Source of the DNA: a virus
Lineage: Duplodnaviria > Heunggongvirae > Uroviricota > Caudoviricetes
Reading direction: 5' to 3' (one strand)
IMG/VR virus record: IMGVR_UViG_2537562190_000019
Length of the DNA: 9,179 nt
Positions 1,820 through 5,221 of this stretch are shown piece after piece. A program made the translations under genes and the position numbers. Within the stretch, counting starts at the first letter, position 1. Every line of letters starts with the position of its first letter. The notes below the pieces were generated by a model. It saw only the letters and a program-made list of their open reading frames with translations. It had not been told where the DNA came from and did not search any database.

Positions 1820-2308
1820 TCAGTGTTTTAAGTCTGTTGGTGGCTTAGGGATGGGGAACCGATTTGAGTAGACACTAGCGGCATTGAGTTTTTTAACCTC
1901 TTTTTTCCCAATGCTGCCGATCTTGCGGTGGGTGAACTGGGCCAGCTTAAACGCGGCATCTAAAGCCAGTTTTGGATCTGTGTCCATGTTGTCAATCAGT
2001 ATCCTGCCCATTGCTTTGATGGGGTCGGGTAGGCCGTTATCCATCATCTCAATGGTGTTAATTGATGCCCGTTCCGGTGTAACTTTTTCGGTAACTTTCT
2101 TTGTAACTTTTTTCGGTTTTGTAACCTGAAAAGTTACATCAGAAGTTACAGCCTTAAGATACTTTTTCACCTCAGGATCGTTGGATAGCTGCCAGCCTTT
2201 AACCCTTGCGGTCTTTTCGCTGTATCCCGCATGTATAGCGGCTTCCGTGGGATTTGCGCCCCTTGATAACGCATCAGCAAACCGCTTTTTTTTGGTCGTT
2301 AATGCCAT
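1820..2308 (-). CDS. terS: Small terminase subunit-like protein (TerS-like / packaging-redirection-like), 162 aa
   Basis: N-terminal signature KKKRFADALSRGANPTEAAIHAGYSEKTARVKGWQLSNDPEVKKYL matches the HTH-type small-terminase pattern (...AT.AAI.AGYS.KTA...). Start reassigned from the GTG at 2449 to the in-frame ATG at 2308, which has GAGG 8 nt upstream; the upstream extension crosses a C9 homopolymer and repeats and is unlikely to be coding. Confidence 0.6.
   Translation of the reverse strand: MALTTKKKRFADALSRGANPTEAAIHAGYSEKTARVKGWQLSNDPEVKKYLKAVTSDVTFQVTKPKKVTKKVTEKVTPERASINTIEMMDNGLPDPIKAMGRILIDNMDTDPKLALDAAFKLAQFTHRKIGSIGKKEVKKLNAASVYSNRFPIPKPPTDLKH
2078..2151. repeat. Cluster of GTAACTTT(T) direct repeats plus inverted AAGTTAC copies inside the 5' third of terS
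   Basis: gtaacttttt 2079-2088, gtaactttc 2091-2099, gtaacttttt 2103-2112, gtaacc 2121-2126; inverted gttac at 2133-2137 and 2145-2149. Two more TGTAACTTTT copies lie upstream of the start at 2332-2354. Confidence 0.8.
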
Positions 2309-2438
2309 GCAAAAACCTCGTTTTGAGGGGGTGTAACTTTTCGTGTAACTTTTTTGAAAAGCAAAATTTTCTACGAATGAGACGGGGGGCGGTGTCCAGG
2401 GTGATCGACTTTCCGGCCGGAACACTCCCCCCCCCATG
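2309..2438 (-). promoter_or_regulatory. terS upstream control region: two TGTAACTTTT repeats, G6 tract, 12-bp perfect palindrome TTCCGGCCGGAA (2411-2422), C9 homopolymer (2427-2435)
   Basis: Direct reading. Palindrome and motif repeats sit where a promoter/operator for the packaging module would be; no -35/-10 could be assigned with confidence. Confidence 0.4.
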
Positions 2439-3180: not shown

Positions 3181-3228
3181 TTTTATTTTTACCCTCGTGT
3201 TTAAAAAGTTTTAGGTTGTGGTGCACCT

Positions 3229-3453
3229 CCTCTACCTCTCTACCCAATCATCTTTCAGGTCAGTAATGGCGCGGCTTTCAGATGGGTAGAGGGCTTTCGT
3301 GGCCCTCTACCCATCCTCTACCCGCTCCTCACAAACGACCTTAATCATGGTGGAGGGTGTAGAGGGCTTTTATTTGCCTTCTACCTGCCCCTCTACCCAC
3401 TTATCATATTGAATAATTTATATTTATTTTCTTTAGGTAGAAGAGGTAGAGGG
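3229..3453. repeat. Iteron-type replication origin: at least 6 direct CTCTACC(C) and 4 inverted GGTAGAG(GG) copies flanking an AT-rich stretch (about 3401-3435)
   Basis: Direct copies at 3229-3245 (x2), 3303-3323 (x2), 3378-3398 (x2); inverted copies at 3284-3293, 3359-3366, 3436-3453 (x2); GTAGAGGGCTTT recurs three times. It lies immediately 3' of the primase/helicase gene, the usual position of satellite and plasmid origins. Confidence 0.7.
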
Positions 3454-3466
3454 CTTTTGTCTAAAA

Positions 3467-5221
3467 TTATAAAAACGCGTCGCAATCATCAGTTGTAATT
3501 GCGTTGGTCTGCGTTACTCCCTTAACTCTCCGCGTAATATATTCATGTCCGTAAACTTTTGCCGCTGGCTTCATGGCCTTGCTGAACTCAGCCACGTTTA
3601 GCGGCTTGCTTCTTCCTGCGTATGCCATAAACGCCAGATAGACGCGGTAAAGGCTGTTCCTGGTCGTGTACTTCACTGAATCGCCACCGCCACCCATCAT
3701 CAGGCCGCGCGCTTCCTCCAGAAAATTCAGGAACTGGCAAAACTCAATAACCGGATCCGTCTGTTGCTTTATTGCCAGTGCTTCATCACCGTCGCGCTGT
3801 TCCAGGAGTAAAGCCCGTGCCTTTTCAGGGTCGGCAAAGTTCGCCAGTAATCGGCGGATAATCACAGGGATTTCAGCCGCGACCTTCTCCGGCAAATCCT
3901 TGTCCTTTTCTGCCTCGCTAACGATATTGTCAAAGCGAAAAATCACCCGACGGCGTGACACACCTCCGGCCCGCTCGGTGAATATCATCGGGTTGTTGTT
4001 GGTCGCCAGTACCACCGCCCTTATTACCGTCGTGAATCGCTTCTCATATTTCGGGTTAATTTCGACGGGGTCGCCGCCCGTGATTTTCTTGATGCCCGTT
4101 CCTTCGCCTGTATATTTCGGTTGGTCAGCCAGGACGATAAGACGACTCCCGACAACCTGCGCACGTCCACCAGCATCATCAAGCGATGTCATTTCAGCGC
4201 TTACCGTGTTCTGTTTCCCTGCCAGAAGGCTGGCTATGTGCGTGAATGTACTTTTACCGCTACCGCCGTCTCCGGTGGCCTCAATAAACATCTGCCAGTC
4301 GTACCGGTTCGCCATAATCATGTACAGCGCGGCACATATACGCATCATCTTGCGCGGGTCTTTTCCGGCTGCGTGATCAAGCCATTTGTGAAAGTTTGGC
4401 GCGTTGTCGCGAATGTTCTCCCCAGGTGCTGGTGGCGTGTACTCAATGCCGTTGTGCGTGGTGATCCAGTTCTCCGGCGTGTGCGGGGAAAATTCCCCCG
4501 TTTTCAGGTCAAGCGCACCATTGGCGAACGGCAGCAAATCGCCGGACGGCTCCCCCATTGGTTCGGCAATAACTTTTAACGCTTCAACGGCGTTATTGAT
4601 CACGCGTTTGCTGAAAGTGGCCCTGTGCTCTGAATAGATCGCCACCATTTCGCGGCTAAGTTCCATTGTGCTGACCGGACACCATAACCCGCCGCGCCAT
4701 ACGTGAACGATTTCACTTTCAGGATGTACGCAAACGCCATCAAAGCGATCGGAAAGCAGCTGAGCGCGTTCACTGTCCGCCATCTGCGAAAGTTGCGCCT
4801 TTTGCTTTACCGGAAGCTCAACGACCAGACCTTCAGAAAGATTCTGGCGCTCACGGGCAAGATATTCGCGCCAGTTCTCCACCTTCTGACCGTGCATTCC
4901 TTCGGGGTAAAAATTTGCATCCTGTACACCTGCCGCCGCCAGCTTCTGACCAATCTTTTTGGTCTCCACCAAGTCCAGTTCTCCTGCCTGGTACAGCCTT
5001 ACGCGTTTTTTTCCATCAGGAACAATTTGCAGTGCATCAAGTTCGGCAAGCTGATTTGGCCCAAGCCACACAGGAGGCACATTATCGCCGGATGCGGGGC
5101 CGTCCTGCTCCTGCCACTGTTTTGCATGTGCCCACGCATCACTACCCGCGAAAATAATCACCTCTGTGTCTTTGTGTTTTATTCCGCGTGGCTGTTTTTT
5201 TACGTTCGGTGCCAGTTTCAT
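3467..5221 (-). CDS. Replicative primase/helicase (P4-family primase C-terminal / D5-like SF3 NTPase domain)
   Basis: Walker A GDGGSGKST, Walker-B-like RLIVLADQ, and the P4-family primase C-terminal signature IKKITGGDPVEINPKYEKRFT (cf. LTGGD...F). ATGA overlap with the upstream 99-aa gene. Confidence 0.75.
   Translation of the reverse strand: MKLAPNVKKQPRGIKHKDTEVIIFAGSDAWAHAKQWQEQDGPASGDNVPPVWLGPNQLAELDALQIVPDGKKRVRLYQAGELDLVETKKIGQKLAAAGVQDANFYPEGMHGQKVENWREYLARERQNLSEGLVVELPVKQKAQLSQMADSERAQLLSDRFDGVCVHPESEIVHVWRGGLWCPVSTMELSREMVAIYSEHRATFSKRVINNAVEALKVIAEPMGEPSGDLLPFANGALDLKTGEFSPHTPENWITTHNGIEYTPPAPGENIRDNAPNFHKWLDHAAGKDPRKMMRICAALYMIMANRYDWQMFIEATGDGGSGKSTFTHIASLLAGKQNTVSAEMTSLDDAGGRAQVVGSRLIVLADQPKYTGEGTGIKKITGGDPVEINPKYEKRFTTVIRAVVLATNNNPMIFTERAGGVSRRRVIFRFDNIVSEAEKDKDLPEKVAAEIPVIIRRLLANFADPEKARALLLEQRDGDEALAIKQQTDPVIEFCQFLNFLEEARGLMMGGGGDSVKYTTRNSLYRVYLAFMAYAGRSKPLNVAEFSKAMKPAAKVYGHEYITRRVKGVTQTNAITTDDCDAFL

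Follow-up and report, generated by a model that had tools for sequence, protein, structure and literature searches.

The window analysed here, a 9179-nt stretch of DNA, represents an island of about 10 kb located between clpS and cspD of Escherichia coli O157:H7, and it is a satellite of Shiga-toxin-producing E. coli (STEC) of the phage-inducible chromosomal island (PICI) type. The island encodes a small terminase (TerS; gene terS, 1820..2308, - strand, 162 aa), and an array of short repeats lies around the start of this gene. The array is a genuine cis element that chance does not account for and that evolution has conserved. Judging from sequence comparison, we think it rather probable that the repeats are cosB-like elements recognized by TerS within a cos-type packaging site, and not a headful pac site, with a specificity distinct from that of the Shiga toxin (Stx)-type prophages residing in the same genomes. 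TerS would bind them through its N-terminal helix-turn-helix (HTH).

Repeat array and the probable cut site beside it

Exact matches to GTAACTTT occur six times in the window (+ strand at 2079, 2091, 2103, 2333 and 2345; - strand at 2130), while 0.28 are expected, and none of 200 dinucleotide-preserving shuffles got to six. When up to one mismatch to TGTAACTTT was allowed, eight matches were found in the window, seven of them inside 2078-2352, with 2142-2150 newly added, and a repeat finder returned the same repeat families together with long imperfect inverted repeats arising from them. In the terS-strand reading the word is AAAGTTACA, with eight copies over 2078-2352, two before the terS start codon and six in the gene (two inverted, one partial and three direct). 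The start codon is the ATG at 2308, in agreement with the 489-nt RefSeq coding sequence, which corrects the start assumed in an earlier sequence-only reading of this DNA. The copies are as follows:

2344..2352, - strand: U1, AAAGTTACA, non-coding, 37-45 nt 5' of the terS ATG
2332..2340, - strand: U2, AAAGTTACA, 12 bp past U1, 25-33 nt 5' of the ATG
2142..2150, + strand: I1, inverted, GAAGTTACA on the + strand and TGTAACTTC on the gene strand, coding for A-V-T-S at the end of helix 4 of the DNA-binding domain
2130..2138, + strand: I2, inverted, AAAGTTACA on the + strand and TGTAACTTT on the gene strand, coding for D-V-T-F, 12 bp from I1
2120..2128, - strand: H, partial direct, CAGGTTACA, matching at 7 of 9 positions, coding for Q-V-T
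2102..2110, - strand: D1, direct, AAAGTTACA, coding for K-V-T
2090..2098, - strand: D2, direct, AAAGTTACC, coding for K-V-T
2078..2086, - strand: D3, direct, AAAGTTACA, coding for K-V-T

The U1/U2 pair, 12 bp apart and non-coding, thus spans 24-45 nt 5' of the ATG, D1, D2 and D3 are likewise spaced by 12 bp, and the in-gene copies correspond to codons 53-77 of 162. The sequence-only reading had counted at least five direct and two inverted GTAACTTT-type copies, which the exact, one-mismatch and repeat-finder matches bear out, and the KVT-rich peptide AVTSDVTFQVTKPKKVTKKVTEKVTPE is encoded as it had stated. It had placed the array upstream of and within the first third of terS; the upstream part of this is right, but the in-gene copies run from about a third to about half of the way through the gene.

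Directly upstream of U1 lies a block that is shared with phages:

2360..2437, - strand: conserved cos block, a run of nine G (2427-2435), a spacer, then GGACACCGCCCCCCGTCTCA..AGAAAA
2382..2391, - strand: putative cohesive-end (cut) sequence CGCCCCCCGT, homologue of the mapped CGCCCCCCCT
2353..2381, - strand: A/T-tract spacer between the cut site and U1, TCTCATTCGTAGAAAATTTTGCTTTTCAA, with its length kept across relatives

In Stx phages, terS is placed between the HNH endonuclease gene and the gene of the large terminase (terL), and window positions 2437-2360 are homologous to positions 1213-1290 of one such locus (L002), i.e., to the phage DNA between HNH and terS. The G run, the spacer and GGACACCGCCCCCC(C/G)TCTCA...AGAAAA are common to island and phage, and in blastn the segment 2355-2434 matched 73 phage records with 79-81% identity and E down to 4e-8. 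The GenBank record of the Stx1 phage Lys8385Vzw ends with ...GGACACCGCCCCCCCT and begins with CTCACGCAGAG..., with the break inside the homologous block. It is already known that Lys8385Vzw is a cos phage with 3' cohesive ends CGCCCCCCCT, as found by PhageTerm (PMC7946995), and that HNH proteins are required partners in the HNH-associated class of cos phages (bioRxiv 10.1101/2022.09.08.507074). Twelve loci, taken from gammaproteobacteria of several genera, were aligned, and both the G run and the pattern ..ACC.C.CCC..TC.CA....A.AAAAAA are kept from Enterobacterales to Acinetobacter, with the first variable word at a fixed distance from the cut-site block. A full-text literature search for the conserved cut-site string returned unrelated papers only. 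By this homology, the island very probably has a cos-type cut site at 2382-2391, about 30 bp upstream of U1.

The sequence-only reading had proposed that the repeats may be the packaging initiation (pac) site or an autoregulatory site. Comparative evidence strongly supports a TerS recognition site, but the pac label is probably wrong, because the phages most closely related here belong to the HNH-associated cos type, for which 3' cohesive ends have been mapped. Since the cut-site homologue at 2382-2391 lies outside the interval that had been marked, the repeats would be the cosB-like recognition part and not the cleavage point. Both repeat clusters are downstream of the inferred cut site and do not flank it.

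The recognition words differ between island and phage. In the 3.5-kb locus of the Stx phage there are five GTTAAC words, all between cos and terS, in the 125 nt before terS, where they occur as CAGTTAACATGTTAACTG, AAATGTTAACTG, AAATGTTAAC and CAGTTAACATTT, and no GTTACA word was found near cos in this locus. In the cos-terS stretch of the island there is no GTTAAC, and GTTACA words are present instead. On these words, island and Stx phage are alike in the type of cut site and unlike in the address, and because the cut site is phage-like but the words are GTTACA and not GTTAAC, the island would get its own packaging specificity. Stx-type HNH-terS-terL prophages share genomes with the island (e.g., NZ_CP020106.1 and NZ_CP074781.1). 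The Stx-type cos/HNH-terS-terL module was found in 1253 of 5426 complete E. coli genomes, and since it reaches up to eight copies per genome, many prophages in one STEC cell would have one packaging specificity.

No TerL or HNH open reading frame (ORF) is present in the ORF list of the island between int and the clpS junction. Since the island has neither of these and still uses another word than the Stx-type prophages of the same genome, the reader of the word is likely to be encoded by the island itself. We suspect that this reader is TerS because it is the sole DNA-binding packaging protein common to the word-sharing islands and the Hafnia prophage described below; the small ORFs found upstream of cos in PICI-type loci are absent from this word-sharing prophage.

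Relatives, TerS and selection on the DNA word

In a scan of species-representative genomes, the best TerS match had 45% identity, and closer relatives were obtained by exact-protein look-ups. Four loci have TerS proteins at 53-65% identity:

L083: E. coli island, HNH-terS-capsid
L085: Hafnia alvei prophage, HNH-terS-terL-protease/capsid-portal
L087: Salmonella locus
L089: metagenomic locus

All four keep the cut-site block and have AAAAGTTACAC about 35 nt before the start (in L083 as a pair, at about 50 and 38 nt), and the linker of each contains inverted TGTAACT(T), once or twice, as well as direct AAAGTTACA, in two or three copies. Relatives at 30-45% identity show the same architecture with other words (positions relative to the terS start):

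L006, Proteus: AAGTTAAC, at -34, then five copies from +172 to +304
L007, Morganella: GGTTAACC
L017, Ignatzschineria: ATGTTAA
L025, Pseudomonas: TGTTAAA, at +176, +188 and +200
L026, Acinetobacter: AAAGTGCA, at -32, -20, +168 and +195
L029, Atlantibacter: GTAAACA
L034, Acinetobacter: AAAGTTAAC

A 7-mer from -70..0 that recurs at least twice in +140..+330 was found in 19 of 42 family loci, compared with 24 of 810 equal-sized control windows from the same loci.

Some further matches are of note. At 5800-6000 of L083, an HNH-like ORF precedes terS, and the cos-to-terS spacer is longer; it has about seven words of the GTTACA type, a palindromic pair (AAAAGTTACACGATGTAACTTTT) and a single ATGTTAAC of the phage type, and may be an intermediate or a dual-specificity site. 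When the cos-terS region of the Hafnia prophage was compared by blastn with the phage collection, no match was obtained, and no sequenced GTTACA-word phage was identified there. A pattern scan of viral_contigs for two phased AAAGTTAC words gave mostly single matches, probably due to chance, and a few short contigs (L105, L132 and L154) with the 242-254 bp double signature of the island.

The island TerS matches Terminase_2 (PF03592, E=1.4e-10) and phrog_641 (E=1.5e-43). It is 57% identical to the TerS of the Hafnia prophage and 46% identical to that of many Stx1a-, Stx2a- and Stx2c-converting phages. A phmmer search of TerS against the PDB gave only non-significant matches to structures of the SF6 TerS DNA-binding domain (2cmp, 3zqp and 4zc3), and therefore the family assignment stands on Pfam and PHROGs. 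The helical DNA-binding domain is encoded by codons 1 to about 52, and a linker predicted to be disordered by codons of about 59-84; the oligomerisation core and the tail take up what remains. In the AlphaFold2 (AF2) model, the confidence (pLDDT) is below 50 at residues 60-85, between the confident helical N-domain and the C-terminal helices. The in-gene repeats are hosted by one segment:

2069..2152, - strand: linker-coding segment, hypervariable in length and sequence among homologues

The HTH region is otherwise highly conserved across the TerS family, but the residue after its invariant KG varies with the word (W, W, C, C and Y among the five loci with GTTACA, and S wherever the word is another), a covariation that is confounded by phylogeny. 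Suggestively, position 39 of TerS (W in the island) may be a candidate specificity residue.

Several observations, taken together, show that selection acts on the DNA word and not on the peptide. Two perfect copies, U1 and U2, are non-coding. In the five GTTACA-type genes, the Val-Thr codons are always GTA-ACT at the two inverted positions and GTT-ACA or GTT-ACC at the direct ones, and at identical residues the codon is identical in 85% of cases within the repeats (80/94), versus 48% elsewhere (386/798; nominal Fisher p=2e-12, with pairs that are not independent). In the Acinetobacter locus L034, the same AAAGTTAACT is read in two frames, giving KKLT/EKLT and PKVNS, while other clades have different peptide repeats (KVN, EVN, VK, KSA). 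The near-identical E. coli TerS alleles P0003 and P0004 carry one or two K-V-T units versus three, so that the number of D repeats ranges from one to three, which is consistent with slippage and some redundancy of copies. It had been proposed from the letters alone that the repeats impose the KVT-rich stretch on the protein, and codon choice, frame changes, the non-coding copies and the hypervariable, disordered linker all support this.

Proposed mechanism, alternatives and known systems

In the mechanism we propose, the island is excised and replicated, and concatemers would result. Island TerS would oligomerise on U1/U2, just downstream of the cut, and on the I/H/D cluster 180 bp further, inside terS, and the 12-bp phasing would suit successive DNA-binding domains of a ring, or the wrapping of DNA, a geometry that we infer; for ring-shaped small terminases of the Terminase_2 family, wrapping and looping models have been proposed (PMC4856287), which the phasing and the two-part arrangement of the island repeats fit. 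The bound TerS would recruit helper TerL and the HNH partner for a staggered cut at CGCCCCCCGT (2391-2382), about 30 bp upstream, and packaging would run from the repeat-bearing end into terS and onward, as in lambda, whose cosB is situated between cosN and Nu1. The in-gene copies lie in the part coding for the disordered linker, in which the DNA word can be kept with a KVT-rich peptide as the price.

A number of points weigh against cosB-like recognition by TerS as set out here. The cut site is assigned by homology, and CGCCCCCCGT differs from the mapped phage end by one base. The two-cluster layout appears in only 19 of the 42 loci at the 7-mer threshold. The Stx phage has all its repeats upstream of terS, and thus in-gene copies are not obligatory for this terminase family, and given the variation from one to three in alleles, not every D copy is essential. 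The HTH residue and the word vary together in a way that phylogeny confounds, and the product of the ribbon-helix-helix-like small ORF upstream of cos may also bind the repeats. As for the helper, the Stx-type prophages of the same genome may not be the real ones, since the C-terminal tail of island TerS (..PPTDLKH) resembles the Hafnia-type ..LTKH and not ..LVVNN.. of Stx phages.

The first alternative, which we consider unlikely, is that the repeats are mainly an operator, i.e., that TerS or a regulator (e.g., the product of ORF 2604-2798) binds U1/U2, loops to the in-gene cluster and controls terS, while packaging specificity resides elsewhere. U1 and U2 do lie over the terS leader, 24-45 nt before the ATG, beside a small hairpin that pairs with the Shine-Dalgarno sequence; the SPP1 terminase was reported to repress its own synthesis, with pac overlapping the gene 1 promoters (PMC6316719), and PICI-type loci have two conserved small ORFs just upstream. 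However, L085, a bona fide prophage, has the same layout, as do Stx phages with GTTAAC as the word; in these, terS belongs to a late operon, following genes for lysis and HNH, and neither of the small ORFs is present. The first repeat is at a fixed distance from the cos cut site and not from a promoter, and no sigma-70-like promoter was found near it; the sigma-70 scan around the repeats gave none, and the "terminator-like" matches were trivial or on the wrong strand. Autoregulation by the upstream pair could possibly coexist with packaging recognition. The leader hairpin itself (2315-2332, CCCCTC-AAAAC-GAGG) follows directly after U2, pairs with the Shine-Dalgarno sequence and could couple TerS binding to translation.

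It is also quite unlikely, in our estimate, that the repeats are read by a helper-phage or host protein (the HNH partner, TerL or a DNA-bending nucleoid protein) instead of island TerS. The requirement for HNH proteins in this class of cos phages (bioRxiv 10.1101/2022.09.08.507074) and the A/T tracts flanking the repeats would fit such a reader, but the island word differs from that of the Stx-type prophages of the same genome though the island encodes neither HNH nor TerL, and the word changes clade by clade along with TerS, while a host factor would not explain the turnover of the word within a single host genus.

We give very little credence to the explanation that the array is a by-product of a low-complexity K-V-T linker, selected as protein and expanded by 12-bp slippage, with coincidental non-coding copies. 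The 12-bp period does equal four codons, and the variation from one to three units among near-identical alleles is typical of slippage, but two perfect copies lie in non-coding DNA, orientation-specific synonymous codons are kept across proteins that are 53-65% identical (codon identity of 85% versus 48%), two reading frames are used for the L034 word, the layout persists in other clades although words and peptides differ (KVN, EVN, VK, KSA), and the linker is predicted to be disordered. Equally improbable is a role at the RNA level, where UGUAACUU (I1/I2) would pair with AAGUUACA in the leader (U1/U2) or the linker (D1-D3) and tune terS translation: 2129-2153 and 2329-2353 are complementary (25 nt, 84%), as are the I and D copies over 21 nt, and the minimum-free-energy fold contains an I2:D1 hairpin, but the leader-to-linker mRNA fold has z=-1.8 (equalled or surpassed by 5 of 100 shuffles), z is -0.97 for the leader together with the cos stem-loop, no Rfam family was matched, the pairing is not conserved (L026, L025 and L034 have only direct copies or palindromic cores), and the Stx phage keeps all copies in upstream non-coding DNA.

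If the repeats are compared with known systems, cosB of lambda (R3-I1-R2-R1, bound by gpNu1) is like the array in having short repeated elements on the terS side of the cut with an A/T-rich spacer kept, and some elements in opposite orientation; in lambda, these elements hold terminase in place so that the adjacent end is cut accurately and packaged (PMC4856287). The island array, too, stands beside the inferred cut and has at least three elements with some of them inverted, but its TerS is an HTH protein of PF03592/phrog_641 and not of the gpNu1/Nu1 family, its relatives use 10-nt 3' cohesive ends together with an HNH partner, and an IHF site, which was not looked for systematically, was not identified in the array. 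While all elements of lambda cosB are upstream of the terminase gene, most island elements are inside terS, 230-310 bp from the cut. On this comparison, the island site would work functionally like cosB without being a member of the lambda cosB family.

The pac site of SPP1/SF6 (pacL-pacC-pacR, bound by G1P) is recognized by a TerS of the same Pfam family, PF03592, and the recognition DNA overlaps the leader with its ribosome-binding site and terS, as in the island; in both, a bipartite site suggests binding by an oligomeric ring with DNA wrapping, and autoregulation is possible (PMC6316719, PMC4856287). In SPP1, however, packaging is by the headful mechanism, and the two binding regions lie on either side of the cut with no sequence in common, whereas in the island both clusters are on one side and share one word, and the phage relatives of the island point to HNH-associated cos cutting and not to headful packaging without HNH. 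The in-gene site also differs, as it is in the part coding for the DNA-binding domain in SPP1 and in the linker-coding part in the island.

Among satellites, Rpp-type PICIs of E. coli (EcCICFT073) are like the island in having a helper-like cosN with their own cosB, so that satellite DNA is preferred (PMC6092414, PMC6739421); the same cosN as in the helper with a different cosB was shown experimentally (PMC6739421). These PICIs have no TerS of their own and Rpp re-programmes the TerS of lambda/80, while our island encodes a complete TerS homologue, belongs to the world of HNH-dependent cos phages, and has an explicit, repeated recognition word. Staphylococcus aureus pathogenicity islands (SaPIs) with TerS-S share with it an island-encoded TerS homologue, the use of helper TerL and an island-specific site, but they are headful (pac) systems from another host phylum and TerS lineage, and the evidence for the island points to cos ends. 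As in satellites that redirect packaging through TerS, the island has a phage-homologous TerS without TerL, and its site is distinct from that of the resident phages. By its sequence features, the island appears to combine an own TerS in SaPI style with the "same cut site, different recognition site" of Rpp-type PICIs. In the literature searched, which was not exhaustive, we found no description of the word, of its placement in the linker, or of TerS-type Gram-negative PICIs on HNH-cos machinery.

If cosB-like recognition by TerS is correct, it would provide an explicit recognition code (a 9-bp word, phasing, and TerS position 39 as a candidate) for a very widespread terminase module, which includes Shiga-toxin-converting phages and the satellite of O157, O26, O103 and O111 STEC, and it would explain how a Gram-negative PICI with a TerS of its own can compete for HNH-dependent cos packaging machinery. 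It would also be a clean case in which a DNA site acting in cis limits what amino acids a disordered linker can have, and swaps of the motif could re-target packaging, e.g., in engineered transducing particles.

A 53-aa ORF lies directly after terS (1647-1808, - strand), and ORFs of 50-51 aa are in the equivalent place in L088, L089 and L090. It matches positions 89-125 of 162 of phrog_641 (E=4e-7) and aligns to the TerS oligomerisation core (hhalign E=3.8e-5), without a DNA-binding domain; its product could be a decoy that co-assembles with helper TerS rings and poisons them, in a Ppi-like role. To hypothesize further, and only tentatively, the roughly 320 bp that begin at the cut site and extend through the TerS linker may form a portable and self-contained specificity cassette, in which the gene part for the DNA-binding domain is bracketed by its own words, in the leader on one side and in the linker-coding DNA on the other, paired with the 53-aa mimic of the TerS core. 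In that case a single recombination would transfer the reader along with its address between phages and satellites, with no loss of compatibility at the cut site and the TerL-docking core, which would explain both the clade-by-clade turnover of words (GTTACA, GTTAAC, GTGCA, GTAAACA) and the private packaging specificities of satellites.

Island context and neighbouring elements

All genes of the island are on the - strand, and their set is the same as that described for Gram-negative phage-inducible chromosomal islands (PMC6092414). Apart from terS, they are:

9179-7956, - strand: integrase gene
7094-6870, - strand: AlpA-like HTH gene
between the AlpA-like and primase-type genes in listed order, - strand: Icd-like gene
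5221-3467, - strand: D5/primase-type replication gene
listed between the primase-type gene and terS, - strand: small ORFs
734-1666, - strand: capsid-family protein gene, 310 aa

The terS region was found in 220 of the 5426 complete E. coli genomes, with serotypes O157:H7, O103:H2, O111:H8, O26:H11 and others. In profiles of phage protease-capsid fusions, the match of the capsid-family protein is confined to the C-terminal capsid portion (positions 386-592 of the 626 in phrog_617), and in related phages a 645-aa Peptidase_S78+capsid fusion is encoded; by analogy with Ccm of SaPIbov5, it may redirect capsid size.

Words of another family, GGTAGAGGG/CCCTCTACC, are dense in both orientations at 3225-3460, next to the 3' end of the primase-type gene at 3467, and this array is likely the replication origin of the island, in the position expected for a PICI. 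We also considered the GTAACTTT array as origin iterons and rejected this, as the separate GGTAGAGGG/CCCTCTACC family adjoins the primase gene and the GTAACTTT array is 1.1 kb off.

Just upstream of the cos block are two small ORFs, 2439-2600 (53 aa) and 2604-2798 (64 aa), both on the - strand, with counterparts in the PICI-type loci L087 and L089 (the first ends with ..VEGLISLLGE in both) and none in the Hafnia prophage. The 64-aa product looks ribbon-helix-helix-like by eye and has no Pfam or PHROG match. Further upstream, an 83-aa ORF ends at a strong intrinsic terminator (2893-2910, - strand; AGCCGGAGCAATCCGGCT followed by a T run). After the terminator comes an AT-rich stretch, 2800-2890, where the consensus scan called no promoter; with a TATAAT at about 2848-2853, it is probably where the small-ORF/terS/capsid operon has its promoter.

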